From Candidatus Kerfeldbacteria bacterium (GTDB lineage Bacteria > Patescibacteriota > Patescibacteriia > SBBC01): a stretch of 64,000 nucleotides of DNA. The notes beneath the pieces are model-generated. The model ran no database searches. It saw only the letters and a list, made by a program, of their open reading frames with translations, and had not been told where the DNA came from. This document shows, piece after piece, positions 1,910 to 64,000 of this stretch (position 1 is its first letter; the number at the start of each line of letters is the position of its first letter). Both the position numbers and the translations under genes were made by a program. The stretch lies in NCBI GenBank assembly GCA_043799405.1, contig JAZDNT010000001.1, positions 25,752 to 89,751 of the forward strand, given 5' to 3'.

Positions 1910-2473
1910 ATGGATGATGGCGCTGTACAGCCCGAGCCGAACGATGAAGCGCTCGTCGCACAGGTGCTCGACGGAGAAGTGGAAATTTTTGGCATTCTTG
2001 TAAGACGATACGAGCAGAAGCTACGACGGTACGGAAGGCGCTTCATGGCAGGTCGGGAAGACATCGAAGATATCGTCCAAGAGGTATTCCTTAAAGCGTA
2101 CGAGAACCTCCGAAGCTTCGACATCAAACGCCGCTTCTCTCCATGGATCTACCGCATCGCGCATAACACCTTCATTAATGAGATGAGACGCGCATCGCGT
2201 CATCCTACCATCACGCTCGATACCGACATCCTATTCCCTCATAAGAGCATGCCGTCTCCCGCAGACGACCACGAAAGGACTGAAACGAAGGAAATGATGC
2301 AGCGCGGACTCGACCAGCTTGATTTCAAGTATCGAGAACCGCTCATTCTGTTCTACTTTGAGGAAATGAGCTACGCAGCGATCGCAGAAGTACTTCGAAT
2401 CCCTGTATCGACCGTTGGTGTCCGTATCAGCAGGGCGCGGGTTGCCCTTAAACGCATTCTCAACACCGGATAA
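1910..2473 (+). CDS. ECF-type RNA polymerase sigma-70 family factor
   Basis: Region 2 (DIVQEVFLKAYENLRSF..SPWIYRIAHNTFINEMRR) and region 4 (MSYAAIAEVLRIPVSTVGVRISRAR). Confidence 0.85.
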   Translation: MDDGAVQPEPNDEALVAQVLDGEVEIFGILVRRYEQKLRRYGRRFMAGREDIEDIVQEVFLKAYENLRSFDIKRRFSPWIYRIAHNTFINEMRRASRHPTITLDTDILFPHKSMPSPADDHERTETKEMMQRGLDQLDFKYREPLILFYFEEMSYAAIAEVLRIPVSTVGVRISRARVALKRILNTG

Positions 2474-2480
2474 ACACTCT

Positions 2481-3224
2481 ATGGAAACCTCGCCTATCGA
2501 AAACAAGGTCTTAAGTGATATCAGGAGCAAACGTATTGCCATGCGTTCGCGGAGATCGATCGTTCGTAGAAACGCGATGTTCGGAGTCGCACTTGGTGCC
2601 TTTGCCGTACTCCTTCTCCTGTTCGGCAGCTTCGTCGCGTACTCATTGCACAGGACGGGGATTCTCTACCTTCCTGCGTGTGGTACGAAGGCGCTGTCGT
2701 ACATGCTGCACCCCTTCTCGTGGTTCAACGGCGTTTTGTTTGCGATGTTCAACCTGCTCGGGATCGCCTTTGCCGTGTTCCTCGGGAGAAAGACCGCTAT
2801 ATACCGCGCACCGCTCATATACGTGCTTTTCGCGACCGCGGTTGTCGTGATCGGTGGCGGGTTCCTCATTTTTCTCACACCCCTGAACCGCGTTGTAGGC
2901 TCGATCGCGAATAAGCATCAGATTCCGATCATTGCGCCGCTATTTCAAAAAGCAACGAGCACCATCGAAACACATACGACACCGGGTCTCGTCCGGAATG
3001 TTCAAAGCGGCAGCTTCGAACTCGTAACGTTCTCGAAAAAGGTCGTCGAAGTTCGAACGACACCGTTAACGACGTTCCTTCATGGGTTCGTACCGAAAAA
3101 CAATGATGTTGTCATCGTTGTCGGTACAACCAAGGACGGTGTTATTGAAGCTGACGTTATCCATGAATACCCTGGTAAGCTAACGCCCGAGGAAATCTCC
3201 GAACTTACACAGGTTCAACAGTAG
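2481..3224 (+). CDS. membrane protein downstream of the ECF sigma (possible anti-sigma)
   Basis: ATG at 2481 lies 8 nt after the sigma stop. There are several TM helices after a short cytoplasmic N-terminus. The call rests on position only. Confidence 0.4.
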   Translation: METSPIENKVLSDIRSKRIAMRSRRSIVRRNAMFGVALGAFAVLLLLFGSFVAYSLHRTGILYLPACGTKALSYMLHPFSWFNGVLFAMFNLLGIAFAVFLGRKTAIYRAPLIYVLFATAVVVIGGGFLIFLTPLNRVVGSIANKHQIPIIAPLFQKATSTIETHTTPGLVRNVQSGSFELVTFSKKVVEVRTTPLTTFLHGFVPKNNDVVIVVGTTKDGVIEADVIHEYPGKLTPEEISELTQVQQ

Positions 3225-3386
3225 AATATTCGCCTGATCCCTAGGAGTTCTGCTCTACCCTGAAGTACTGCGCAGATACCGGTGTATTAAAGAGCGAAAG
3301 GAGGTTATGCCTTCTTAGCTCGTTCAACCCGAATGTTTAACCCGGACCCTCGAACCTCTTGGGCGTTTTGGGTATATATCGCGGTA

Positions 3387-3415
3387 TTGTAGGATAAAAA
3401 AACAGGCGGTATGAT
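3387..3415 (+). promoter_or_regulatory. sigma70-like promoter (TTGTAG-17-TATGAT)
   Basis: Hexamers with a 17-nt spacer, ~40 nt upstream of the 3453 ORF. Confidence 0.4.
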
Positions 3416-3452
3416 ATAGCTACATTACTATTCTCTTAAGGTAAATACGTCT

Positions 3453-3581
3453 ATGGCGAAAAAGAGGGTCAAACCCGTGTACCGTAGCGCGGTAAGCGGA
3501 CGGTTCGTATCAAAGGGTTACCTAAAAGGTCACCCGACGAAGACCGTCACCGAGCATGTCAAAAAGGGAAAGAAGAAGTGA
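3453..3581 (+). CDS. 42-aa basic protein (MAKKRVKPVYRSAVSGRFVSKGYLKGHPTKTVTEHVKKGKKK)
   Basis: Below the ORF-track cutoff. The YRSAxSGRFVSKxYxKxHPxxTV pattern resembles a recurrent small bacterial protein, recalled from memory. Its stop overlaps the next start (GTGA). Confidence 0.5.
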   Translation: MAKKRVKPVYRSAVSGRFVSKGYLKGHPTKTVTEHVKKGKKK

Positions 3582-3886
3582 AGGGTAAGCGGTTTCTCTA
3601 TCTCGCGCTCTCGACGTTCCTCGGGATCATTTTGAGTTACGGTATCCACGCAGTCGTCGAACTCATGTACCTCAATTGGGCGGAAAAAACGAACCATCTG
3701 CTAACGTGGACGATGCACTTCGGCGTCGGTGCGTGTGCGCTTTCACCGTACGTACAGTATGGATTATTTATTGCTGGCGTAGTTGGAGGTTTTTTAATCG
3801 GCCGCGTGTGGTGGCGGATCGTCTACGTTGAGCATCGGCACTGGATGCGAAAGGAGGATCGCGAAACCAGGCCGAGAGACGTATAG
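3578..3886 (+). CDS. small membrane protein (3 TM)
   Basis: GTG start overlapping the upstream stop; hydrophobic helices; no family recognised. Confidence 0.5.
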   Translation: MKGKRFLYLALSTFLGIILSYGIHAVVELMYLNWAEKTNHLLTWTMHFGVGACALSPYVQYGLFIAGVVGGFLIGRVWWRIVYVEHRHWMRKEDRETRPRDV

Positions 3887-3919
3887 CGTGTCTCCCGACC
3901 CGGCGTTGGCGTTCTCGAA

Positions 3920-4219
3920 CTAGACGGGCGCGAGCGATTCGATACCCGGAAGGACCTTCTCCTCGAACCGTCGTCGGTTCTCCGGAAACTCCTCTGTGAG
4001 ACTGATCGCGACTTCGCAGCCACCCGCGTCCCCACTCCGCTCGAATGAGCTCAGGAACCGTTCGTCCACTGTGGACATCGAGATCCCGTAGCCGATCATG
4101 TTGCGGAGCTCGCGGACCCGTCTGGTCGCTTTGGGCTTGAAGCGGATCTTCAGCGTCCCCTTCTTGGCGGTCGCCTCGTCGAGCACTGCCTTGAACGGTG
4201 CATCCCCCTTGTCACCCAC
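3920..4219 (-). CDS. hypothetical protein
   Basis: GTG start preceded by AAGGAGGTG with an 8-nt spacer on the minus strand; no family recognised. Confidence 0.55.
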   Translation of the reverse strand: MGDKGDAPFKAVLDEATAKKGTLKIRFKPKATRRVRELRNMIGYGISMSTVDERFLSSFERSGDAGGCEVAISLTEEFPENRRRFEEKVLPGIESLAPV

Positions 4220-4328
4220 TTCTTCTTCACCTCCTTAGAATCCCGGTACAACTGGTTGGAACCTATCGTATCTAACATGCACCGTCAAGCGCTACAGCTT
4301 TGTTATTGAATTTTGATATACTTTACGT

Positions 4329-4868
4329 ATGACATCGGTAACCGCACTCCTCGGGGATATAACAACGCAGCAGGTTGAGGCGATCGTGAACGCCGCGAAC
4401 GAGTCGTTGCTCGGTGGAGGTGGCGTCGACGGCGCTATTCACGCTGCAGCTGGTCCCGTTCTTCTCGAAGAATGCAGGAAGCTCGGCGGATGTAAGACCG
4501 GCGAGGCGAAGATCACGAACGCTTACCGTCTTCTGGCTGATTACATCATCCATACCGTTGGTCCGATATACTCGGTGAAGAAGGAGAAGGTGCCTGAATT
4601 CCTCGCACAGTGTTACCGGAGCTGTCTTGAGGTCGCACAATCACACCTCATTCGAACGATAGCATTCCCCTCGATCTCAACGGGCGCCTACGGGTACCCC
4701 ATTGAAGAGGCGGCGCCGATCGCCGTCGCAACGGTGAGTGCTTGGATCGCGGAGCATCCGGATACCCTCGATGAGGTGCGGTTCGTCCTTTTTAACGATG
4801 AAGACTTGAAGATATATTCAGCGGTTCTACACGAAAAAACGGAAAAGACGGTCAATGGCGTATCGTAA
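4329..4868 (+). CDS. macro-domain protein (O-acetyl-ADP-ribose deacetylase, YmdB-like)
   Basis: GDITTQQVEAIVNAAN..LLGGGGVDGAIHAAAG and FPSISTGAYGYP. Confidence 0.9.
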   Translation: MTSVTALLGDITTQQVEAIVNAANESLLGGGGVDGAIHAAAGPVLLEECRKLGGCKTGEAKITNAYRLLADYIIHTVGPIYSVKKEKVPEFLAQCYRSCLEVAQSHLIRTIAFPSISTGAYGYPIEEAAPIAVATVSAWIAEHPDTLDEVRFVLFNDEDLKIYSAVLHEKTEKTVNGVS

Positions 4869-6394: not shown

Positions 6395-7048
6395 TTACTC
6401 AAGCCAGCGCGCCGATGTTGTCTTTTTGCGTACAAAAAACTTTGTTACGAGGTAGCCGAACGCAAAACCGCCGATGTGCGCAAAGTATGCGACACCGCCC
6501 TGGTACCCGATCGAACCGGCGCCTGATATGAATTGGAACACGATCCAGTAGATGAGCATCGCTTTAGCCGGGATCGCCGTGACACCCCAGATGCCCCAGA
6601 GGACATCAATGCGTTCGTTCGGGAACAGGACGAGGTACCCGCCCATAGTGCCGGCGATAGCGCCTGAGGCCCCGAGGTTCAGAACCGTCGAGTGGGGATC
6701 GATTACGATCTGAAGCGCAGATCCTATAGCACCAGCAGCAATGTAGAAGAGGAGAAAGCGGAACCTGCCGAGGCGCTCCTCCATATTATCCCCGAAGATA
6801 TAGAGGAACAGCATGTTGCCGATGAGGTGCATAAATCCGCCATGCAGGAACATGGCCGTCAGAACAGTGAAGAGGTTCTGTCCGTGAACAATGTCGTTCG
6901 GTATGAACGAGTATCGCCCAAGGAACGCGTCGAGGTCGGTACTTCCTAGCGTTAGCATGTATGCGAACACTGCGACGTTCGCCGCAATGAGGAAGTACGT
7001 TATGAACGGCCGTTTGCCAGACGGCGTATGGTCGCGGAGCGGTATCAT
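6395..7048 (-). CDS. rhomboid family intramembrane serine protease
   Basis: FLHGGFMHLIGNMLFLYIFG, GASGAIAG and the AHIGG motif. Confidence 0.9.
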   Translation of the reverse strand: MIPLRDHTPSGKRPFITYFLIAANVAVFAYMLTLGSTDLDAFLGRYSFIPNDIVHGQNLFTVLTAMFLHGGFMHLIGNMLFLYIFGDNMEERLGRFRFLLFYIAAGAIGSALQIVIDPHSTVLNLGASGAIAGTMGGYLVLFPNERIDVLWGIWGVTAIPAKAMLIYWIVFQFISGAGSIGYQGGVAYFAHIGGFAFGYLVTKFFVRKKTTSARWLE

Positions 7049-49305: not shown

Positions 49306-49850
49306 AGCTCTCAGGAGACCGGATGATCGCTCTCCTACGCTCACCTGCGGTGAGCTTCGGCGAGTTCCAGATTGATTGGGGCTTGCCCACCGAAGCTCGC
49401 TAGAGGCGAGCGTAGGGGGGAGGAAAGTCCGAACACCTCCTTTGAAAAAAGGAAACAGGGGAGTCGCTAACGGCGACCGAGCGAGCTACGTGAGCATCCG
49501 TTCGCGAATACTCACGTGACGAAGCTCAGGGATAGCGCAACAGAAACATACCGCTGCGCTCAACTTATCGGGTGCAGTAAGGGTGAAATCGTGGGGTAAG
49601 AGCCCACGGCTTGGTCGGGTGACCGATCGAGCGGGCAAGCCCTCCCCGGTGCAAGATCGAATAGGTCCCGACCGCGAAAGTGCGGCGAGACGGGTAGATC
49701 GCTAGAGGTCGTCAGCAATGGCGATCCAAGAGAGATGATCATTCAGCCTACGTCGGAGACTCCGGCTGACAAGCGTCCCATAACGGAACTTGTCCACCGA
49801 AGCCTCCGGCGCAGGTGGACAGAATTCGGCTTACAGGCCTCCTGAGGGCA
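49306..49850 (+). ncRNA. rnpB: RNase P RNA (bacterial type A core with expansions, ~545 nt)
   Basis: GGAGGAAAGTCCGAACAC (CR-I/P4), ACAGAAACATACCGC, GTAAGGGTGAAA, GGTAAGAGCCCAC and ACAGAATTCGGCTTACAG (CR-V/P4). P1 pairs CTCAGGAG with CTCCTGAG (49836-49846). Confidence 0.93.
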
Positions 49851-54241: not shown

Positions 54242-56427
54242 AACAAGAGGTACAGCACGACAACCGCTTCGATGCGTTACAGGAGGTTCCGCCTCAGAAC
54301 GTTCTCGATCTGCGAAAATCAGTACACGAGGTCGAGGCTCCGGAACCGAGAAGCGTTACCCTTGAACGTTTTTGGAAAGAAAAGAGTAAGCGCATACGTC
54401 AACCATCGCCACCGAGGCGGCAACGACCAGCACTCCAAGACGTATGGGGCGGCTTTACGATGCGTACAAGAGCCGTTGTTCTTAGGATCAGGATCGGGTC
54501 GTTCCCGATCGTTGCGGCTGTACTGCTCATCGTATACGCCGCTATAGCGGGGATCGGCCAGGTCATTTCGACGAAGAATAGGATCATTGATGTTGCAAAA
54601 ACGGGATATGAAGCACTGAAGGTCGCGGGAGCTAAGGCAGAATCGCTCGACCTTGCTTCTGCACGGACTGCGTTCGAGAGCGCTTCGCAGAGTTTTGCGA
54701 CCGCTGAATCTTCTTTTACCGACATCGGTCCGGTACTGCGGTTGGTTCTGTCAGCGGTTCCCGGTACCGGCTCAAAATTGCGGAGCGGGAAATACCTCGT
54801 GACCGCCGCACGTCACCTCGCTGATGCCGGAGCCCGGTTTACGACGCTCGCAGCTCCGCTCACTACGAAAGGCGAGGGATTTTCGAGCGTCGCTGGTTTT
54901 CTTAAAAATATCGATGCGAATCGGCAGACGCTCGATGCGATCGTTACCGAGGTCACCGTTGCTTCTGATGAACTCGCGAATGTCAGATCCCAGGATCTTC
55001 CGGTAGAGTACCGCGAACCCGTAGAAAAAATGCAGTCGGCAATCCCCGGGCTCCGGGTGAGCATTTCTAACCTTGCGGACGGGATGACCGTCATGTCGCA
55101 GATGTTCGGCGTCAATAAGCCCTCCGAGTATCTCTATATATTCCAGAACTCGAACGAACTTCGGGCGACAGGCGGTTTTGCAGGAAGCTTTGCACTCATC
55201 CGCATTGACGGAGGGATCATAAAGCTCCTCGACGCGCCGAGCCGCGGAACGCTTGATGTCGATACTAACCTTACAAATACCGTAACGCCTCCTCGTCCGC
55301 TGCAGGTGATAACGCCGAGCTGGTACTTCCGTGACGCGAACTGGTACCCCGACTTTCCGACATCAGCAGAGCAGTTCATGCGGTTCTACCGGCAGGCGCG
55401 AGGGTTCACACCGGATGGTATCGTCGCATTCACGCCTGCGCTCATTGAACAGATCCTTGCCGTGACCGGTCCGATAGAGCTTCCGGAGTACAGCGTCACG
55501 ATCGACGAGACAAATTTCGTCACGACCGCGCAGGAGCAGATCGAGCAGAAGTACGACCTCCGCACGAACGATCCGAAGCAGTTCATCGTCGATCTTATTC
55601 CTACGCTCGCTGACAGGCTTTCGAAACTCGACGTTACGACCTATCCGGCGCTCCTTGCAACGCTTGCGCGAGCGACCTCGATCGGCGATCTGCAAGTCTA
55701 TAGCTCTGACGATTCGGTACAGGAAAAGATCGTTCAACTCGGCTGGTCAGGAACGATGCCGCAGCCTGACGGTGATTTTTTCGAGCTTGTGAATACGAAT
55801 ATCGGCGGCGGCAAGACCGACGGCGTCATGCGTGACGAAGTGAGCGACCATGTCGTGATCGCGACTGATGGTACGGTCACCGTTGAGGTTACGGTGACTC
55901 GTACGCACAAAGGAACGATCGGCGATCCGTTCATGGGAAACAGGAACCGCACGTACCATCGTTTCTACGTCCCGCGCGGCTCGCGTCTCGTATCAACGAC
56001 AGGATTCACAGAGCTTTCTCGTGACGTCTATCAAACGTTACCAGAAGGTTCTTCGCCGGATGAACTTCTTTCGGATACTGAGGGGCGCGTCATCATTGAC
56101 GAACGTTCCGGGACCCGCATTAACAACGAGTTCGGAAAGACCGTGTTCGGGAACTGGACAGAGCTCGATCCGGGGAATTCCGTAATATTCTCGGTGATCT
56201 ATACGCTTCCGTTCACATTCACCGGTAACCTAGAGCGCTACGACATCACTATCGGCAAACAGGCCGGTAAAACGCGCCAATCCTTCGAACTGAACGTCAC
56301 AGTACCGGATACTACGAAGGTCGTCTGGAATTCCGTTGACGGAAGCAAGAAAAAGACCAGTTCCTTTTCGTACTTCACAGATCTTGCATCATCTCAGAAG
56401 GTGTCTCTCGTTCTGCAGAAGAAGTAA
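54238..56427 (+). CDS. DUF4012-like large extracytoplasmic protein
   Basis: N-terminal TM; YLYIFQNSNELRATGGFAGSFALIRIDGG motif, recalled family resemblance. Confidence 0.7.
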   Translation: MKQEVQHDNRFDALQEVPPQNVLDLRKSVHEVEAPEPRSVTLERFWKEKSKRIRQPSPPRRQRPALQDVWGGFTMRTRAVVLRIRIGSFPIVAAVLLIVYAAIAGIGQVISTKNRIIDVAKTGYEALKVAGAKAESLDLASARTAFESASQSFATAESSFTDIGPVLRLVLSAVPGTGSKLRSGKYLVTAARHLADAGARFTTLAAPLTTKGEGFSSVAGFLKNIDANRQTLDAIVTEVTVASDELANVRSQDLPVEYREPVEKMQSAIPGLRVSISNLADGMTVMSQMFGVNKPSEYLYIFQNSNELRATGGFAGSFALIRIDGGIIKLLDAPSRGTLDVDTNLTNTVTPPRPLQVITPSWYFRDANWYPDFPTSAEQFMRFYRQARGFTPDGIVAFTPALIEQILAVTGPIELPEYSVTIDETNFVTTAQEQIEQKYDLRTNDPKQFIVDLIPTLADRLSKLDVTTYPALLATLARATSIGDLQVYSSDDSVQEKIVQLGWSGTMPQPDGDFFELVNTNIGGGKTDGVMRDEVSDHVVIATDGTVTVEVTVTRTHKGTIGDPFMGNRNRTYHRFYVPRGSRLVSTTGFTELSRDVYQTLPEGSSPDELLSDTEGRVIIDERSGTRINNEFGKTVFGNWTELDPGNSVIFSVIYTLPFTFTGNLERYDITIGKQAGKTRQSFELNVTVPDTTKVVWNSVDGSKKKTSSFSYFTDLASSQKVSLVLQKK

Positions 56428-56466: not shown

Positions 56467-56500
56467 ATGCCCATTTTTCGGGCATGTGGATAACTTTTTT
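56467..56500 (+). terminator. hairpin ATGCCC-atttttc-GGGCAT followed by a T-rich tract
   Basis: Lies 40 nt after the DUF4012 stop. Confidence 0.45.
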
Positions 56501-56544: not shown

Positions 56545-56573
56545 TTGACAGGGGAAGATAGGGGGTGTATCTT
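56545..56573 (+). promoter_or_regulatory. sigma70-like promoter (TTGACA-17-TATCTT) pointing into the island
   Basis: Perfect -35 box, 17-nt spacer. Confidence 0.45.
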
Positions 56574-57056
56574 TTCCTGTTCTACTGGGACATCGCGCAC
56601 ATTCAATTCCATTACAACTTGAGGAGAGAGCCCCGCCTACGCTAAAGCTTCGGCGGGTGACCGGATCAGGCCTGAGAAACCTGTTCTACCACAACCATGA
56701 TTTATCCCAAAGATGGGGTGGATCGTGCTTAAGAGCTCTTGCCTCATAAGTACGATCCACCTCGCTTTCGTTTTCGGAAATATGGAGGAGGAGGGCGATC
56801 GGCAGCGGTCATACTGAGCGGTGAAAACTGCAAAGCACGACCAAGCCGTTTCGGTCTGCTGGGCTTCGGCCCAAAAGCGGACATTCCTCACCTCCAGAAT
56901 TCCGGAAATGAGAAGATCGTCCGGAGCGTTCGCGCTGGTATGCGGTATCTATCGTATGTCGCGCGAGCGGTCCGGGAGAAGTTGTTCCGGCTCGTTCTAC
57001 ACCAAGCACACGCTTGGCCCACGTCTCGGGGGATTGAGACACCGCAGGAGCATGAG

Positions 57057-57278
57057 ATGAATTTGTTTTTCTGTCTCATCATCGATCTCGGGTGTCTGGT
57101 GATTCCCGCGTGGTTCAAGCCGATGCGTCGCGAGATCAATCGGCAGATGGATGAGCGCGATGCGTTCGCGCTTGCCGCGAGTCACGCTGTTCGTGATGAC
57201 GTCGAGAGGGCGATGGCAGATGCTCTGCCGACGTTCCGTCATCATCACGATCAGATGGTGGCGCGGTACGGCTTGTAG
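57057..57278 (+). CDS. island ORF A: 73-aa protein with N-terminal TM
   Basis: GGAG sits 6 nt before ATG 57057. The upstream part of the 56739 track ORF looks non-coding. Confidence 0.5.
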   Translation: MNLFFCLIIDLGCLVIPAWFKPMRREINRQMDERDAFALAASHAVRDDVERAMADALPTFRHHHDQMVARYGL

Positions 57279-57473
57279 TTCGTTCAATCCCTGTCCGCAA
57301 GGACAGGTCGGGAGGAAGATGACCGGATAACGGTCACGCTCCACGGGGAATGCCTAGGCACAGAAGTTTCCCCACAGTTCCGAGCCAATTCGATTGTAGC
57401 CCTTCGACTAAGCTCAGGGTCATCCTGAGCGGGGCGCTCAGAATGAGTTGGTTCAGAACTGTAATTTAAAAAC

Positions 57474-57549
57474 AATTGACATTTGACACTTAATATTTGA
57501 CGTTTAACTCTGCCGAATTTCTGTCAAATGTCACAAGTTAAAAGTCAAC
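57474..57549. repeat. second inverted heptad array (TTGAC heptads / GTCAA heptads)
   Basis: aattgac atttgac acttaat atttgac gtttaac, then a 13-nt gap, then tgtcaaa tgtcaca agttaaa agtcaac. 57496-57509 can pair with 57536-57549 (12 of 14). Confidence 0.75.
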
Positions 57550-57609
57550 TGTTCCGCGAAGCGGATAGCTCGTTACAACACGTTCAGGTCATAGGATGGT
57601 GGGAGTTCG

Positions 57610-57912
57610 GTGTGCATGAAAAACATGCGTGACGATGTCCCACCATCTGTTGCTTCCCGTTCCATTCCGCTGAAGGTGATGCGGAATATGGAGATCGTCA
57701 TGAACGAGATTTATACCGCGGCGAAGCTGATTGCTTTTGTAGCAGCGTGCTTCCACATCGGTAACGCATCTATGGTTGTCGGTTGGAAGGACGACAAGTG
57801 GATTGCGATCTGCGTTGGGACGCTGAGTGTCATCGCGTCTGCGCCGATCGCGTTCTACGCGGTCTTCCACTTCGCTCGGGCAATCATCAGTCTGACCATC
57901 TTCGCTAAGTAG
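57610..57912 (+). CDS. island ORF B: ~100-aa 2-TM protein
   Basis: GGTGGGAG upstream; start is GTG 57610 or ATG 57616. Confidence 0.55.
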   Translation: MCMKNMRDDVPPSVASRSIPLKVMRNMEIVMNEIYTAAKLIAFVAACFHIGNASMVVGWKDDKWIAICVGTLSVIASAPIAFYAVFHFARAIISLTIFAK

Positions 57913-58148
57913 GCGATCAACTCTGAATGAGGAGGTCCGCTCATGACCTGGACGTAAGTAGCTTGTTTAAACCGCACCCACAAGGTGCGTCAGGCGGAGA
58001 TGACCGTTCGTACACGGCGCTCCATCGGGGAAGAGCCTGGAACTGAATCTTCCCCTTCGCTCGAGCCCCGAAAGCGTTCGGGATTCAAGCGAGGTAGATC
58101 GTTCCACATCGAAGTTCATCCCAACATCCGACGGAGGAGGGAACACGC

Positions 58149-58439
58149 ATGAAGGGCATCGGAGCTCTGTTGATTGTCCTCGCCGTGATCTATCTGATCG
58201 GGTGGGGCGGTTATAACTGGATCGATGGGAACATGAACCCGTTCGGATCGGTAAGGACGAGCGAATCGTTCCCGTTCCTGCAGGTGATGTTCCTGGGGGT
58301 GATCTGGCTGATCGCTGGCGCGTTCGGGATCATCTACGTCCTTCTGCACGCAGTCGTGCAAAACGATGTAGGGTTCCTCCTCTGGTCCTTTATCGGCGGT
58401 GTCGCGTGCGTGGTTACGGCCATGTTGCGGAACCGCTGA
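58149..58439 (+). CDS. island ORF C: 96-aa 3-TM protein
   Basis: GGAGGAGGG sits 7 nt before the ATG. Confidence 0.6.
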   Translation: MKGIGALLIVLAVIYLIGWGGYNWIDGNMNPFGSVRTSESFPFLQVMFLGVIWLIAGAFGIIYVLLHAVVQNDVGFLLWSFIGGVACVVTAMLRNR

Positions 58440-58716
58440 CGCTAAGCTCGTTCTCGGGATACTCGTAAGAACATCGCGAGATCCCCTGGACCGAGTCGAT
58501 GAACATAGTGTTCACCGATTCAGTCCAGAACGCTCATTACAACTTGAAGGTCAGTATCTCCCCATTGATACCGCAGAAGGTTCGTCACGCACGTGGCGTG
58601 TCTCCTGCGGTATCAATCAGCTTGTTGCCAGTACTCTGCACGGCACGACTACGAACGTGGTCCATGCCTAATACCCATGACGGGTTTTGCAGATACTGCA
58701 ACGAGGAGGAGCTCAG

Positions 58717-59419
58717 ATGAAGCGTCTCACGTTGGTCACGATCGCGCTGCTCGCGCTCGTCCTGTCCTTCGCCGGCATCGCGCTGGCAGAGAACACGAAG
58801 TTCACCGCGAATTCGACCACAACGGGTTCGATCGACACGGGTCCGTTCACGGACGCCGTGAAGGCCGAGCTCGCCAAGGGTGTGAACGTCCACGTGACGC
58901 CGGTCGGACTCGGTGGGGGTCAACCGCCGGCTCGACGCGACGGACGCCAAGCTCGATCGCATGGAGGCCAACGCGGACGATCGCGGGGGACAGCAGTTCC
59001 GCGACCACGAGTCGCAGTCAGCTGCTCTCGGCCGCATCGAGAGCAAACTCGACAAGGGCAACGGCAACGTCGTCGGGTGGCTCGCACTCATCCTCGCTGG
59101 TATCGCATTGCTGGTCGCGCTTCTCAACCGGGGACGCGACGGGCGTGATGGTCGCAACAGCGACATCTGCCGGGACGAGGTCGGCGAGATGATCGCCGAC
59201 GCAATCATCGCCCACGAGGAGGGCGACGGGCACAAGACCAATGCTGGTCCGAAGGGCGACCCCGGACCCGCCGGCAAGGACGGACGCGACGGCTGCTGCC
59301 ACGAGCACGGTAAGTGCACCTGTGGTCACGCGACCAACGTCATCACCGTCAACGGCGGCACGGTGAACGTCTACAACGGCGCCACGACCGTGACGCCCTC
59401 GGCCACGGCCCAGGCCTGA
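58717..59419 (+). pseudogene. island ORF D: signal-peptide protein joined by a +1 frame change at GGTGGGGGT (58912-58920) to a coiled-coil/TM/collagen-like (G-x-y) protein
   Basis: Frame 1 reads MKRLTLVTIALLALVLSFAGIALA|ENT...VTPVGLGG. GC3-rich coding then continues only in frame 2 (VNRRLDATDAKLDRME...GPKGDPGPAGKDGRDG...). Frame 1 beyond 58920 is Arg-rich junk. Confidence 0.55.
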
Positions 59420-59623
59420 TCTTCAACCTCCGCCTACGCGCTCATAGCGCTTCGGCGGACTAGTACAGGGGAGGTGACATGGTTCTATCCCATGCGCCTC
59501 CCCTCCGATTCCGAATCCACCATACGATTGGCGGATTGAGAATAGGAATGCTCGTCGTAAAACATCGTCAACGGGTCGAAAAGACCCACTAGCAGCGGTC
59601 GTATCCTTCAGGGAGGACGGAAC

Positions 59624-59887
59624 ATGCAGTTCTGCTGCATCCGTAATGGACGGCTTCAGCGAACCAGTGGTCGATTTGGCGGCGACCAGAAGTTCGAGGT
59701 TCGGTTGTCGGACGCTCGCTGCGTCATCGCAGCAAAGCGCCATGAGGCCGACATCGTCGAGGTGTTTCTCAACGGCGTCGACAAGCCCGTGGTCGTGAAG
59801 GCCAAGCCCTTCACGGGTCCCCGGACGATCCTCGTCTGTGTCGTGCCGTCCCGCGCGACGGCACTTCTCACGCGTGCGAGGGCCTGA
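59624..59887 (+). CDS. island ORF E: 87-aa soluble protein
   Basis: GGGAGGA sits 6 nt before the ATG; no family recognised. Confidence 0.5.
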   Translation: MQFCCIRNGRLQRTSGRFGGDQKFEVRLSDARCVIAAKRHEADIVEVFLNGVDKPVVVKAKPFTGPRTILVCVVPSRATALLTRARA

Positions 59888-60212
59888 CCGATGGTTGGTG
59901 CCAGCACGACCACCCCGGATTGGGCCACGAGGGACCGATCTGGTTCCTCGACGAGCTCAAGCTCGAGGCAGCACGCCAGACCTGCTAGTAGCTCGTTCGT
60001 CGGGCAGGCAACAGCAGAGCACCGCTGTTGACCTGCCCATCGAACTTGAGTACAGTAATCCGTTACCGTGTTCAAGTTCGATAGCTCATTACAATCCATC
60101 ACCCTGTTTCCAGCGAGGGATCGAGTCCGTTGAAACAATGCGGATTCAGTTCCTCGCTGGACATCCTAAACCCCGGATCCTCAGGCAATGAGCCAAGAGG
60201 GAAGGAGCGAAC

Positions 60213-60695
60213 ATGAACAGGACGTTGGTCGCGTGGTCGTTGATTGGGCTTGCGATCGTGCTGCTTGGTCTCGTGGTTTGTTTGACCGCAGATCGCTATG
60301 TGCGGGATCGCAACGCACAGCACAACGTCGCGATCGCGGAACACGCGTTCGTAAAGTACCTTTCGGCATGGGAATACGGACGCTACCCCCACATGGGGTA
60401 TGAGATTGAGACCTACATCGATACGCCAAACCACCTGCTCCTCAATCCCTTCACTGGGAAGATGGAGCACATCGTGTTCTGGGATGGGCCCGGCACGAAA
60501 ACCGTACCTGGTCAGACATGCTACACAGTGCTTTGGCGTGCGGATTCGACAGGACACTGTATTGTCCCGCTCGAAGGATTCGCAGCCGTGGTCTGGGTTG
60601 CGGGAAACGACGACTATCGGCTCCACCTGACATACGTCGGGGAGCAGCTGTACCCACCGATACGGCAGGTTCTCGGCAGGTCGTCGACGAGGTGA
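60213..60695 (+). CDS. island ORF F: 160-aa N-terminally anchored extracytoplasmic protein
   Basis: GGAAGGAG sits 5 nt before the ATG. There is a single N-terminal TM and a Cys pair (CYTVLWRADSTGHC) near the C-terminal third. Confidence 0.6.
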   Translation: MNRTLVAWSLIGLAIVLLGLVVCLTADRYVRDRNAQHNVAIAEHAFVKYLSAWEYGRYPHMGYEIETYIDTPNHLLLNPFTGKMEHIVFWDGPGTKTVPGQTCYTVLWRADSTGHCIVPLEGFAAVVWVAGNDDYRLHLTYVGEQLYPPIRQVLGRSSTR

Positions 60696-60834
60696 CCGAC
60701 AGGATGATGGACAATGCGGGGAGGAAGTGGCAGAGTATCGCTAACTTCCTTCCCGCACCTGTTCCGAGCTGATGTTGAAAAACACCCGTTCAGAATAGGA
60801 AGCTCGTTACAAGAAGCGGTTTATATGACGGCAG

Positions 60835-61170
60835 GTGCGGCATCGCTTTTCAGCGGTGCCACATCTGTCGTCATTCCCCATGCCGCAGAAAGGTTACACC
60901 GTGCGGTGGTATCACTACATCCTCGTCGACGCCGTCCTGCTTGCAGTCATTCTCGGGACGGCGAAGATTCTCGGGTTCTGTAACACCCGGGAGCAGATGT
61001 GGACTCTCATCAGCGCCTCCTTGCTCGGGATTCTTGTCTCGTACCTCGTAACGATTGCGACATCGCGTTCGAGAAAGAGACGTCGTCCGCTCCTTCGGAT
61101 CGAACCGTGGGTTGATAAGCACGGCAATGTCCAGGAGCCGGAACGGCGCATGAACCCGGGCAGGTGGTAG
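60835..61170 (+). CDS. island ORF G: 2-TM protein (start uncertain: GTG 60835 or ATG 60880)
   Basis: Hydrophobic helices and a basic tail; no clear SD. Confidence 0.45.
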   Translation: MRHRFSAVPHLSSFPMPQKGYTVRWYHYILVDAVLLAVILGTAKILGFCNTREQMWTLISASLLGILVSYLVTIATSRSRKRRRPLLRIEPWVDKHGNVQEPERRMNPGRW

Positions 61171-61184
61171 CGCGAGGAGGACGT

Positions 61185-61361
61185 ATGAACCGGTTGTATG
61201 TGTTCATCGCGGTGATTGTGGCTATCGGCCTCATACGGTTCATTGCCGCGTGGTGGCCGAGGGAGCCGTGTCGCCGGCTGCCGGCTCGTGAACTCCGGTT
61301 GGAGTTCATGAAGGTGTCAGGGATCGGGTACATTCCCGGTTCCATCAAGCCGCAAAAGTAG
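61185..61361 (+). CDS. island ORF H: 58-aa single-TM protein
   Basis: GAGGAGGA sits 3 nt before ATG 61185. Confidence 0.5.
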   Translation: MNRLYVFIAVIVAIGLIRFIAAWWPREPCRRLPARELRLEFMKVSGIGYIPGSIKPQK

Positions 61362-61608
61362 GGGCCGCTGTATTGAAGTGGGTTGCGACGTTCGACACAA
61401 GAGCGTTGCAACCCCTTCACCCCCGAGTCTATTGGGAATACAATAGGTTCAGGAGTGGAGAGAGTAGTACCAGTTCATTACAACCCGAACTTGAGCAACT
61501 CATGGCGGTGCTGTAGAGGCTAACCTTGGCACCTGCAGCGCCGTCATGAGTACTTGATGGCAATAGAGCCCCTACAGGGATGGACAGACCTCAACAAGGA
61601 GGTGACTG

Positions 61609-61923
61609 ATGTTGGACCTCAGGAATTGGGCGCAGTTGCCGTTGTACATCTGCGACATCGTCGCGTGGCTTGGACTCGTGGGTACGATCTTTGTGGTCGT
61701 GATCGAGTTCAACACACGGCGCGATCGGTGGATGAACGATTGGGTGTCAGATTGGCTCGGCTGGCGTGAGGTAATCACGATCATGATGCTGATCGTTGTG
61801 ACTGTCCGGCTCTCGGACAAGCCGCACGACTGGCTCATGCTCGCTGCTGTTCCGGTCTTTCTGATTGGTACCTACATCCTGATCCCTCTGCTCGGGAGGA
61901 AGCAGCGGATCTATAGTTGTTGA
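61609..61923 (+). CDS. island ORF I: 104-aa 3-TM protein
   Basis: AAGGAGGTG sits 4 nt before the ATG. Confidence 0.6.
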   Translation: MLDLRNWAQLPLYICDIVAWLGLVGTIFVVVIEFNTRRDRWMNDWVSDWLGWREVITIMMLIVVTVRLSDKPHDWLMLAAVPVFLIGTYILIPLLGRKQRIYSC

Positions 61924-61999
61924 GCTATCCCCCGCAAGTCCGCCGAAGTGCCCTGCCGTGAGGCGATCACGGTAACCCCCCCGCGTAAGGACTACGCGC

Positions 62000-62449
62000 A
62001 TGAATGGAATCGAAGTTCACGAGTTTCCCCCCGATGATTCTGTCGGGGCGTACGTGCCGATGACACCAGACGAGGTCGCTCAGTGCTTTGCTGAGCTCAA
62101 CGCCTACTGTCTGGCGAGGGTTTCGACACCCAGGCGTCACCGCGGTGCCGGAAGGCCCCCGGTCACGCTGATGCTCGGGCCCGAGGATCTCGAGGATGGG
62201 TTCAGGTTCAGGAAGATCCCCGGCGAGAAGTGTTCGTCGCAGGAGTCCGCCAACGGCTGCGTCTCGGGCGAGTGCCCGAGGTGTGGGTCATGTCTCAACA
62301 AGGCAGGTATCTGCTCGATCTGCGAGGGTGACTACACCGATGGCTTCGGCCAAGGGTTCGTCGCCGCGGCGGTCACTGCCGAGTTCGGCAAGACCACCTC
62401 GGGCGGTGACGTGTTCGTCTTCTCGATGGACCACCCTCGTCTTCGGTAG
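62000..62449 (+). CDS. island ORF J: 149-aa soluble Cys-rich protein (CxxxxCxxCxxC...CxxC)
   Basis: CVSGECPRCGSCLNKAGICSICEG looks like a zinc-ribbon cluster; no family recognised. Confidence 0.55.
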   Translation: MNGIEVHEFPPDDSVGAYVPMTPDEVAQCFAELNAYCLARVSTPRRHRGAGRPPVTLMLGPEDLEDGFRFRKIPGEKCSSQESANGCVSGECPRCGSCLNKAGICSICEGDYTDGFGQGFVAAAVTAEFGKTTSGGDVFVFSMDHPRLR

Positions 62450-62762
62450 CCGCTTAAGTTCGAGCAGAAAAGGGAAGGTCGTGAATGTCAATGGGACAAC
62501 CACCTTGCATTACCGCGACCTTCCCGACCTTTCTTCTGTGACCTCATTCCGCTAAGGAGTGGGACGTAGAACAAAGGTCATTCACAATATAATGGTCTCC
62601 GGCGATCCGGCCGGAACAGATCCACACTCATCATGGCGCATGTGTTGTTCCTGAAAAGGAACAGAAACTCTCTCCTCACGCATGCAACGGTTAAGCGGGG
62701 ATACTGCGTCTGGTCGGATCATCGGGGGTCACGTTCGGCGAGACCACCTCTCCGCTTCGCGG

Positions 62763-62839
62763 TTTCCCCTCCTACCTCCCCGCCGCCAGGCGGCACCCCT
62801 CCTAAACTTAGGAGGGGGAGGGAGCGGTAGGAGGGGAAA
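62763..62839. repeat. perfect nested palindrome (three-way junction) built from CCCCTCCTA / TAGGAGGGG units
   Basis: The outer 14-bp stem pairs 62763-62776 with 62826-62839. The inner hairpins are GCCGCC-a-GGCGGC (62782-62794) and CCCCTCCTAA-ac-TTAGGAGGGG (62796-62817). Confidence 0.85.
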
Positions 62840-62931
62840 TGCCGACAGGCAATGGGGTGGTACACTCACCCTCCTCGCGACGTGAATACCTTTGAAAAAG
62901 GGGAGTTTTATGGTAGGATAGCGAACAGTTC

Positions 62932-64000
62932 ATGTTTGTTATGACAGCATTTTGGCGTAAGCTCTCATCAACGGTCACCGGCGGCGCTATCATCGTATCG
63001 AGCTCATGGTTCATCTCGAAGCTCTTAGGATTTTTACGCGAACGGCTCATCCTGTCCCGCTTCGGCGCTTCCCCTGAGACCGACGCGTATAATGCAGCGT
63101 TCGGCATTCCCGATTTCATCTATGGTACCCTCATTCTCGGTTCGCTCCTTTCGGTGTTCATCCCCGTGTTCATCCATTACCGCGAACAGAAGGGCAACGA
63201 TGAAGCGTTCCGGATTGCGAACTCGATCCTCAACATCATCGTCATAACCTTCCTTGCGTGCGGCGTCGTCCTTTTTGTGTTTGCGCCGCAGCTCATAACG
63301 CTCGTCGCTCCGGGTTTTGATGCGAAGCGAATTGACCTCGCGGTCGAGATGACAAGGATCATCTCGATCAACATCCTGCTGTTCGGAGTGTCGAACGTGC
63401 TCTCGGGCATTCTCAATGCCTCAAAACGGTTCATTGCGTTCTCTATTGCCCCGATACTCTACAACGTCGGCATTGTCGCCGGAATTCTTCTGCTCGTCCC
63501 GACGTACGGCATCCGGGGCGTTGCGGTCGGCGCCGTCATCGGCGCAGTGCTGCACGTACTCGTACAGGTTCCGTCGGTTCTGCGGACGGGTTTCAGATAT
63601 CGCGGTATCATGGACCTTAAGCACAAAGGGGTCCGCGAGATCGGTCGTCTGATCCTTCCCCGAGCGTTCGGCCAGTCCGTGACGCAGATAGCGCAGCTCG
63701 TCAACCTCATCATCGGCTCGACGCTCGTCGTCGGGAGCGTTACGGTGTTCAGGGCCGCGAACAACGTCCAAGACCTTCCCATTACGCTCATCGGTGTCAG
63801 CCTCGCGACCGTCGTTTTCCCGGTGTTCGCGGAGGCGCTCGCGCGCAACGACAGGGCGTGCTTCGTCCAGCACTTTTCGCGCGTCGTCCGGCAGATACTG
63901 TTCATGGTTATTCCTATCTCCGTGCTCTTTCTTATCCTCCGTGCGCAGGCGATCCGCGTCATCTACGGCGCCGGGCAGTTCGACTGGAACGCGACGATCC
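62932..64000 (+). CDS. murJ: lipid II flippase MurJ (3' partial; runs off the window, so absent from the ORF track)
   Basis: Hand translation gives MFVMTAFWRKL...SKLLGFLRERLILSRFGAS.ETDAYNAAF.IPDF.....LGS.LS..FIPVF and ...GIRGVAVGAVIGAVLHVLVQ.P. Confidence 0.85.
   Translation, partial: MFVMTAFWRKLSSTVTGGAIIVSSSWFISKLLGFLRERLILSRFGASPETDAYNAAFGIPDFIYGTLILGSLLSVFIPVFIHYREQKGNDEAFRIANSILNIIVITFLACGVVLFVFAPQLITLVAPGFDAKRIDLAVEMTRIISINILLFGVSNVLSGILNASKRFIAFSIAPILYNVGIVAGILLLVPTYGIRGVAVGAVIGAVLHVLVQVPSVLRTGFRYRGIMDLKHKGVREIGRLILPRAFGQSVTQIAQLVNLIIGSTLVVGSVTVFRAANNVQDLPITLIGVSLATVVFPVFAEALARNDRACFVQHFSRVVRQILFMVIPISVLFLILRAQAIRVIYGAGQFDWNATI

Follow-up and report, generated by a model that had tools for sequence, protein, structure and literature searches.

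The stretch of DNA analysed here (64,000 nt; the window) is from a metagenome-assembled genome of Candidatus Kerfeldbacteria, which belong to the candidate phyla radiation (CPR, or Patescibacteria). The DUF4012 protein that it encodes has 100% identity to a protein listed at NCBI for a Kerfeldbacteria metagenome-assembled genome. Ten open reading frames (ORFs) of 58-160 aa, designated as A to J, lie on the + strand at 56.4-62.9 kb of the window. We refer to this segment, from the stop codon of a DUF4012 gene at 56427 to the ATG of murJ at 62932, as the island. A preliminary description of the DNA had presented it as about ten short same-strand ORFs, mostly orphan genes for membrane or secreted proteins, which may form an undescribed unit with its own expression signals. 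In this study, we found that the ten + strand ORFs have native coding scores and no family matches, and that the unit has a conserved promoter, a leader RNA, repeated hairpin modules and a trailer RNA. The novelty of the locus is this RNA framework: the large leader RNA, the trailer and the inter-cistronic modules are all absent from Rfam 15. The spacers between the ORFs, described before as rich in hairpins, sum to 2,980 of 6,505 nt (46% of the island). The minimum free energy (MFE) z-scores of seven of the ten spacers were -7 to -9.6 against dinucleotide shuffles, compared to -1.4 to +0.1 in five coding controls.

Orthologous loci were fetched via DUF4012, and one more via protein I, giving 11 related Kerfeldbacteria contigs. 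Five carry a complete island (L012, L014, L163, L164, and L171) and five a partial one (L001, L015, L162, L172, and L173, the last with the far end only); L013 stops at DUF4012. The layout DUF4012, small-ORF island, MurJ, LepA was found in L012, L014, L163, and L164. L171 has the same layout without LepA, and its contig ends in the trailer. Every relative contig that reaches past DUF4012 contained the island, with a run of 6-12 small same-strand ORFs without Pfam matches. In outgroup CPR genomes, DUF4012 and MurJ were adjacent (L011 from Komeilibacteria, and L007) or split by other small ORFs (L002, L003, and L009). Since the outgroups lack the island between DUF4012 and MurJ, it is a lineage-specific insertion that has been vertically inherited since. 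The preliminary description had held that synteny in all relatives, together with ORFs of known housekeeping families, would speak against an unusual system. Synteny of the segment in relatives was indeed observed, but no housekeeping family was matched by its ORFs, and the genes that it holds differ between relatives.

A sigma-70-type promoter, TTGACA-17-TATCTT, with 10 of 12 consensus matches, lies on the + strand at 56545..56573. No other good promoter was found in the island, and all relatives have conserved this one, as seen in the alignments and as regex matches in L171 and L172. Upstream of it, just 3' of the DUF4012 stop, a terminator-like hairpin (ATGCCC-loop-GGGCAT, 56467..56485) divides the upstream gene from the island. 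This hairpin was called on the - strand; its stem is palindromic, and a T-run lies a few bases downstream on the + strand. Within the island, neither + strand intrinsic terminators nor minus-strand promoter-like sites were found.

The leader RNA (56580..57045, + strand) is ~460 nt long, has 11 helices and runs straight into the Shine-Dalgarno sequence of ORF A. It was found by nhmmer directly 3' of DUF4012 in all 10 of the loci that reach this site. RNAalifold on 8 sequences gave 118 pairs, with 93.9% of cells paired and compensatory changes in 45 pairs. None of 500 shuffles was as good, and slid controls were 35-45% paired. Many invariant unpaired nucleotides lie between the covarying helices, and lineage-specific insertions sit in hairpin tips. 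A box-like sequence was found ~22 nt after the inferred transcription start (GCACGTTACAAG in L163, GTACCTTACAAG in L014), and the motif GAGGAGAGAG then follows. A copy of the box that the repeat finder placed at 56609 was set aside as window-specific, not being conserved in relatives.

The leader matched no known RNA. In window 54-64 kb and in 56.5-57.1 kb, the best Rfam 15 matches were miRNA-hairpin noise at E ~0.5. Rfam 15 gave only RNase P and tRNA-Lys in the whole window, and only RNase P and hairpin noise in L012, L163, and L171. An identity as RNase P, tmRNA, signal recognition particle (SRP) or 6S RNA was rejected, as the RNase P RNA lies elsewhere (49377-49784), ARAGORN found no tmRNA, and there was no Rfam match. 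A scan of viral contigs for the leader gave no match. The most conserved 20-mer of the leader had six matches in a metagenome scan. Three of them were rejected as chance matches, as the one in L166 is in a coding ORF and those in L167 and L168 are short and partial, and L165, L169, and L170 had no nhmmer leader match. A literature search for a Kerfeldbacteria or CPR RNA of such a kind returned nothing relevant.

Between the cistrons, the island carries repeated modules that consist of a hairpin (H1), a short box and a second hairpin (H2), in this order, 5' of most cistrons or cistron pairs. The core of H1, 5'-CCGAG / UUCAG-3', contains a G.U pair and a C.A mismatch that is conserved, and the H1 stems are 13-25 bp long with the one C.A mismatch. 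In the H1 alignment of 14 pairs, 93% of cells were paired and compensatory changes were found in 9 pairs; none of 500 shuffles did as well. The H2 stem covaries between orthologous units, as judged by eye in a 4-sequence alignment. The recurring box of the preliminary description was recovered: TCRTTACAA has five exact copies in the 64 kb, all on the + strand and all within 57570-61483. In the islands of the 11 loci (46.9 kb), the core YTCRTTACA has 25 copies, always preceded by G, with the consensus GYUCRUUACAWC. No + strand copy was found in 158 kb outside, and minus-strand matches to the core number two anywhere. All E < 0.01 matches to a covariance model of H1 plus box were in islands and on the + strand, and ~230 kb of flanks and outgroups had no such match.

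The first H1 of the island, the 'master' H1 (GUUCCGAGCCAA...UUGGUUCAGAAC, 57375..57461, + strand), follows ORF A. It has the conserved C.A mismatch and a 43-nt apical insert, matches the covariance model and folds with an MFE of -45 kcal/mol (z -6.1). Unit 2 (57553..57647) has a mini-hairpin, the box GCTCGTTACAAC at 57568-57579 and a covarying H2 at 57595-57647. Unit 3 (58486..58617) has H1, the box GCTCATTACAAC at 58532-58543 and H2 at 58564-58617. Unit 4 (60040..60161) likewise has H1, the box GCTCATTACAAT at 60084-60095 and H2 at 60109-60161, unit 5 (60758..60816) has H1 and the box GCTCGTTACAAG at 60802-60813, and unit 6 (61418..61551) has H1, the box GTTCATTACAAC at 61473-61484 and H2 at 61498-61551. 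All of these units are on the + strand, and degenerate ones also lie 5' of C and E. We also observed an AT-rich insertion of ~90 nt (57462-57552) between the master H1 and the box of unit 2, with three TTGAC(A/G) repeats and an inverted copy, TGTCAAATGTCA. It is missing at the same place in L015 and L163, and no canonical promoter was called in it.

Matches to the modules in viral contigs were rejected. More than 120 matches to hairpin plus box were conserved phage coding sequence (...ARYNHE...) or single chance matches, and 26 matches to the H1 3' arm were all single chance matches. The string TTCAG-N17-GCTCGTTACAAC recurs in dozens of IMG/VR contigs (L016-L135, e.g. L016 9174-9207) because it falls within a conserved phage coding sequence (...FSAQE.F.ARYNHET...) that is unrelated to the island. 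It is a trap for pattern searches.

The modules could also be read as an array of promoters, in which the box would be the core of an alternative-sigma promoter and the hairpins would be terminators, without a U-tract, of the cistron before, making every unit a transcription unit by itself. The window encodes a sigma factor of the extracytoplasmic function (ECF) type (Sigma70_r2 + r4_2, 1910-2470), and the CGTT of the box resembles the -10 element of ECF promoters. GC-rich hairpins follow most stop codons, and the box precedes six ORF groups at 76-180 nt. However, there is no -35 element at a fixed distance. In the H1 3' arm, a GAAC-like sequence is 3-8 nt away from the box, where 16-17 nt would be needed, and the ECF-promoter reading of the box was rejected on this spacing. 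A quarter to a third of the boxes have CATT in place of CGTT, and a box-like copy lies inside the transcribed leader, downstream of the sigma-70 promoter. Moreover, TTCAGGTCA and H2, which follow the box, are conserved as well, as they would be in an RNA element. A multi-promoter array is therefore quite improbable. We also observed that a 269-aa ORF without a Pfam match (2415-3224) follows and overlaps the ECF sigma gene and possibly encodes its anti-sigma factor.

At the far end of the island lies the trailer RNA (62598..62726, + strand), ~130 nt with a predicted structure. It was found in every complete island, about 100-290 nt 5' of murJ, and over five genomes it has 41 predicted pairs, of which 19 show compensatory changes. 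The trailer motif CUCUCUCCUC(ACG) at 62668-62677 is invariant and falls in a predicted unpaired region. The likewise invariant leader motif GAGGAGAGAG (56621..56630, + strand) is the exact reverse complement of the trailer CUCUCUCCUC. Both 10-mers were invariant in the six complete islands, and the trailer motif was also present in L173. These complementary 10-mers flank the island; no direct repeats were found around it, in agreement with the preliminary description.

A hairpin element rich in GC (GGTTTCCCCTCC...GGAGGGGAAA) occupies 62743..62861 on the + strand, after the trailer and before murJ. The element (CGCGGTTTCCCCTCC...GGAGGGGA) was also observed between trailer and murJ in L012 (18298-18367), and copies of 80-83% identity were inserted within the leader in L001 (5625-5694) and L015 (12505-12572). 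Its distribution is like that of a small hairpin that moves or duplicates and would be tolerated in RNA loops. A weak promoter-like site (62892..62919, + strand) lies 5' of murJ. murJ may also be reached by read-through from the island.

A second partial copy of the leader 3' module (CCGGAGCG...hairpin...GCTCGTT) was observed in L001 at 6773-6897, just 5' of an E-like gene. This copy suggests that units arise by duplication of leader parts. It also bears on another reading, in which the leader would be a ligand- or protein-sensing RNA (a very large riboswitch-like 5' untranslated region) or a ribozyme by which the operon is controlled, and the modules would be degenerate partial copies of its 3' part that remain from the duplication of units of leader and ORF. 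In keeping with this, the leader runs into the ORF A Shine-Dalgarno sequence without a terminator, its invariant unpaired nucleotides lie between covarying helices, and its 3' strand GCUCGUUC resembles the box. On the other hand, no expression platform was identified (neither a terminator nor a Shine-Dalgarno-sequestering helix), and the gene content suggests no ligand. The strict conservation of box and H1 far from the leader would be left unexplained, as would the trailer. A sensing or catalytic leader is rather unlikely, and it is compatible with the operon reading given below, not exclusive of it.

The island proteins are small, and all ten genes are on the + strand. ORF A (57057-57278; 73 aa) has a hydrophobic N-terminus and weak homologues after the leader in L012 and L015. 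ORF B (57700-57912; 70 aa) has two transmembrane (TM) segments, and ORF C (58149-58439; 96 aa) has three, with homologues in L012 (35% identity) and L014. ORF D (58717-59419) encodes a signal peptide, a coiled coil, a TM segment, a short collagen-like GXY stretch and a Cys-rich tail. The preliminary description had taken D as a single protein, but its frame is split by an extra G (+1) in the run 58915-58919 (G5); the L012 homologue is a single ORF of 253 aa. ORF E (59624-59988), which is soluble and has a degenerate box, TAG-TAGCTCGTTCG, directly 3', is likewise in two frames (shift ~59840-59890), compared to an intact 139-aa homologue in L001. The frameshifts in D and E could be pseudogenes, strain variation or assembly error. 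ORF F (60213-60695; 160 aa) has an N-terminal TM anchor and an orphan ectodomain. ORF G (60880-61170; 96 aa) has two TM segments and an L012 homologue of 30% identity; it has no obvious Shine-Dalgarno sequence, which qualifies the earlier statement that nearly all genes have strong ones. ORF H (61185-61361; 58 aa) has a single TM segment. ORF I (61609-61923; 104 aa) has three TM segments and is the best-conserved island protein, with 53% identity to L012. ORF J (62000-62449; 149 aa) is soluble and Cys-rich, and its L012 homologue has 34% identity.

Scans of the ten ORFs with Pfam, PHROGs, PADLOC and NCBIfam gave no match above noise. The ORF I family has 6 members among 5.8 billion proteins. 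Those traced (window, L012, L171, and L173) are all on contigs of this clade, and two (P0070 and P0072) fall outside the trace. A homology search with ORF J returned itself and one fragment only. Exact-protein look-ups of F and of the window DUF4012 returned no record. HMMER with F against 1.84 billion representatives returned F itself and four repeat proteins (WD40, RCC1, and Calx-beta) via a piece of ~40 residues, and these four were rejected as repeat-amplified noise. AlphaFold2 predictions made without homologues were uninformative, with a predicted local distance difference test (pLDDT) score of 37 for J and of 47 for F, which was confident in the TM helix only. As a guess, the location of the genes beside the polysaccharide cluster and murJ, the envelope targeting and the turnover would fit a variable cell-surface repertoire.

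With many peptides of 58-104 aa and one to three TM segments, a long structured untranslated leader for each, tandem repetition and fast evolution, the island could also be an array of loci like type I toxin-antitoxin systems, in which small hydrophobic toxic peptides have long structured 5' untranslated regions. This is very improbable. No antisense promoters were detected in the island, the modules are strand-specific, with the two minus-strand core matches anywhere, and there were no PADLOC matches. The cargo also includes several large proteins that are secreted, soluble or lipoproteins (D, E, F, and J; the 173-aa protein of L012 and the 166-aa protein of L163).

The composition of the island was compared to the rest of the window. 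The higher GC content of the preliminary description was real, reaching 65.9% in 58.7-59.4 kb, but modest overall: 57.5% in the island and 53.7% in the rest of the window. GC at third codon positions (GC3) was 0.67-0.86 in island ORFs and 0.63 in core genes. Codon-usage log-likelihood ratios of the ten ORFs in frame were 0.14-0.49, compared to 0.19-0.51 in 16 core genes. The five alternative frames of each ORF had negative to weakly positive scores, always below that of the annotated frame. The long minus-strand ORFs and a 179-aa TTG ORF over the leader (56739-57056) had non-coding codon scores. The codon usage of the island is native, and its ORFs are real genes.

These results bear on the possibility of a degraded prophage, a lysis or exclusion cassette or another horizontally acquired island. 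The slightly raised GC and GC3, the orphan ORFs with two frameshifted genes, and weak matches of the D collagen-like stretch to phage fibre families (E 5e-4 to 0.1) agree with it. However, the fibre matches were rejected as low-complexity GXY, far under the family cut-offs. The codon usage is native, blastn with the island as query found nothing in 50,697 phage records, and no phage structural or replication genes were found in the island by Pfam and PHROGs family scans. No integrase or recombinase was found in 20 other window ORFs scanned or in the island, for which the preliminary description had also noted no integrase. The island is at the same site in every relative reaching past DUF4012, with leader and trailer conserved. 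An acquired island of this kind is extremely unlikely. Two suggestions of the preliminary description are thus not borne out: a phage-derived lysis or exclusion cassette, for which there was no phage DNA or protein similarity and no integrase, and a compositionally foreign or mobile island, given the native codon usage and the constant DUF4012-murJ site.

Between the window and L012, MurJ was 85% identical, whereas identity was 30-53% for C, D, G, I, and J, which are shared island proteins. L012 lacks counterparts of B, E, F, and H. The further cargo of relatives includes lipoprotein-like proteins. The non-coding parts (leader, trailer and modules) are more conserved than the island genes. The spacers are not mere packaging, as had been thought, but the part of the island that is most conserved and tells most about it. 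A cation-efflux (CDF) gene was observed as the last gene before the trailer and murJ in L163 (11820-12443) and L164 (11564-12193), and ordinary transporter genes can therefore reside in the array. In other CPR lineages, small ORFs, including TM mini-proteins, were observed between DUF4012 and murJ (L002 12110-14900; L009 11990-14270), but neither the leader nor the box of Kerfeldbacteria. This junction of DUF4012 and murJ may be a hotspot of lineage-specific small genes in general. Upstream of the same DUF4012 locus, L013 has a pair of genes like a diversity-generating retroelement (bAvd and a reverse transcriptase, 3183-4727), between an RNase H gene and the polysaccharide cluster. The class A RNase P RNA of the window precedes the polysaccharide cluster; its position is kept in L012 (5226-5709) and L163 (413-876), and the L012 copy, ~480 nt, exceeds the 367-position model.

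The turnover of genes between conserved modules could also be explained at the DNA level, by a cassette array in which hairpin and box are recombination sites, like integron attC or pdif, served by a recombinase encoded elsewhere. Gene content differs strongly among relatives and the inter-ORF modules are conserved. The same box and H2 leader precedes apparently unrelated ORFs in the window, L012, L171, and L001, and the E-like gene is at a different array position in L001. The 87-nt master H1 is 97.7% identical to that of L015 and 94% to that of L163, though its flanks have diverged. Integron arrays, including clusters of attC sites lacking integron-integrases (CALINs), have the same short, same-strand orphan ORFs and variable content, and their imperfect hairpins likewise share a short conserved core. 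They differ in that neither the island nor the 20 other window ORFs contain IntI, and the island is chromosomally fixed and collinear, with structures at the RNA level.

The hairpins themselves also argue against recombination sites. The H1 arms are 5'-(A)GTTCCGAG...TTCAGAAC(T)-3' (GTTC...GAAC), with GTT/AAC distal to the loop, whereas attC (RYYYAAC...GTTRRRY) has the opposite topology, with AAC/GTT proximal. Neither arm fits R'' or R', and the box GYTCRTTACAAC contains GTTACAA, not the GTTRRRY of the attC consensus. The distance between H1 and the box varies from 3 to 20 nt. The genes common to the window and L012 (A, C, D, G, I, and J) are collinear, a pattern that descent with gain and loss would produce. 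The locus has not moved, being at the same site in all retrieved contigs that reach past DUF4012. The modules are strictly strand-specific and have other covarying hairpins on either side, and it is clear that leader and trailer function at the RNA level. We therefore give a cassette array only a small chance.

In the explanation that we favour, the segment is an operon that was inserted between DUF4012 and murJ, has been inherited vertically and belongs to one Kerfeldbacteria clade only. Its design would be like that of an rRNA operon, with one transcript, boxA-like antitermination sites, processing or stabilising hairpins, a leader-trailer helix, and envelope mini-proteins. This explanation draws on analogy, and we put its joint probability at about 0.4. 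The whole 6.3 kb would be made as one long transcript from a single promoter, since there is one promoter, no + strand terminator, all genes on one strand and structured RNA at both ends. With ~46% of the transcript untranslated, premature termination of the Rho type would be a problem, and the boxes would therefore act like boxA sites. They may load the host elongation complex (NusB/S10-type), by which premature termination would be suppressed. The hairpins would be processing or stabilising sites for the cistron RNAs, and the leader GAGGAGAGAG and the trailer CUCUCUCCUC may pair across the operon as in the leader-trailer helix of rRNA operons. The cargo would be rapidly diversifying envelope mini-proteins, plausibly at the cell surface of an episymbiont.

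The order of signals in the E. coli rrn leader is boxA and then boxC, which pairs with distal sequence, and the box-like copy with GAGGAGAGAG after it in the island leader is a parallel to this order. The boxA CGCUCUUACACA of lambda nutL with its hairpin resembles GCUC(R)UUACAAC with H2 in the island. All 25 boxes are on the + strand and are predicted to be single-stranded between covarying H1 and H2, their transcription being inferred. In gamma-proteobacteria, the boxA search consensus is GYTCTTTAANA (PMC5725501). The island box agrees with it at 9 of 11 positions, including Y at position 2, although this consensus is gamma-proteobacterial and may not be that of the host. Stringer et al. (eLife 2020, PMC7665894) reported that boxA protects CRISPR arrays, as long untranslated transcripts, from Rho. 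The boxA consensus diverges between phyla and needs calibration on rRNA leaders of the same lineage (PMC7665894).

Several points weigh against this rRNA-operon-like reading. The box has two mismatches to boxA (U5 to R and A9 to C), and its A-rich tail is one base shorter. The window and the retrieved loci contain no rRNA genes, so they provide no boxA of the lineage. A tblastn search for nusB, with NusB sequences as queries, found no match in ~0.3 Mb, a small part of these genomes (~5-10% of the genome). The canonical boxA GYTCTTTRACAA, with up to 2 mismatches, was not enriched in the window. The complementarity of the two 10-mers is of low complexity, (GA)n/(CU)n, and has no covariation support; their pairing is unprovable by covariation because neither motif varies. 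RNAalifold instead pairs the leader motif GAGGAGAGAG with GCUCGUUC near the leader 3' end. As for the single transcript, the promoter scan was for sigma-70 promoters, and other promoter types are invisible to it.

rRNA operons have a strong promoter, a boxA-like 12-mer within ~20-30 nt and then a motif complementary to the far end of the transcript, like the island. Their leader carries boxB, boxA and boxC, the spacer has a second boxA, and RNase III cuts the helices that leader and trailer form. They also share hairpin and boxA(-like) modules in internal spacers and a long, largely untranslated transcript. They differ in their rRNA cargo, compared to the protein-coding mini-genes of the island, and in having two boxA modules, compared to six or seven per island operon. 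The box of the island has R at position 5 and a shorter A-tract, and its end-motif pairing and Nus role are putative. In CRISPR arrays, boxA was likewise recruited outside rRNA for a long, repetitive, untranslated transcript (PMC7665894). These arrays have a single boxA in the leader, whereas the island has the element before most cistrons with specific conserved hairpins.

Conserved imperfect hairpins between cistrons are also found in the polycistronic transcript of the T7 early region, where they are RNase III sites and serve processing and 3' stabilisation. The island differs from T7 and lambda in that its context is not phage and no N-like protein was identified; H1 as a substrate of RNase III would be an analogy. 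The leader resembles the OLE, GOLLD, ROOL, HEARO, and raiA RNAs, large structured bacterial RNAs whose function is unknown or was solved recently, in its length (>400 nt), multiple helices, abundant covariation and narrow phylogenetic range. It may also be likened to EAR, a processive-antitermination RNA which promotes read-through in eps operons and thus acts in a polysaccharide or envelope operon. In contrast to all of these, it matches no Rfam 15 family and forms the 5' part of an mRNA operon with a matching trailer.

In a further-reaching version, leader and trailer would be the two halves of one large structured RNA not described before, paired across ~6 kb via GAGGAGAGAG and CUCUCUCCUC and hosting an expandable array of mini-protein cistrons. 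The modules would then be the CPR counterpart of the rrn boxB/boxA signals, an rRNA-type machine for transcription, antitermination and processing having been co-opted for the hypervariable surface repertoire of an episymbiont. Alternatively, the leader would be a new class of ribozyme or riboswitch. We consider these possibilities doubtful.

Bacterial RNAs of >400 nt with such covariation are rare, and each earlier one opened a new line of work. Here, the leader, trailer and modules come from the CPR, a radiation that is poorly understood. Should the boxes be Nus-factor sites, boxA-type antitermination would be extended to a multi-site protein-coding operon, and boxA specificity in CPR could be approached for the first time. 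Otherwise, the modules would be a new class of inter-cistronic RNA signal. In either case, leader, trailer and box provide sequence handles for finding the locus and for reading metatranscriptomes. The biology of episymbiont attachment is largely unknown, and the clade-restricted, fast-evolving cargo near murJ and the polysaccharide cluster is a candidate for the host-interaction or envelope repertoire of these episymbionts.

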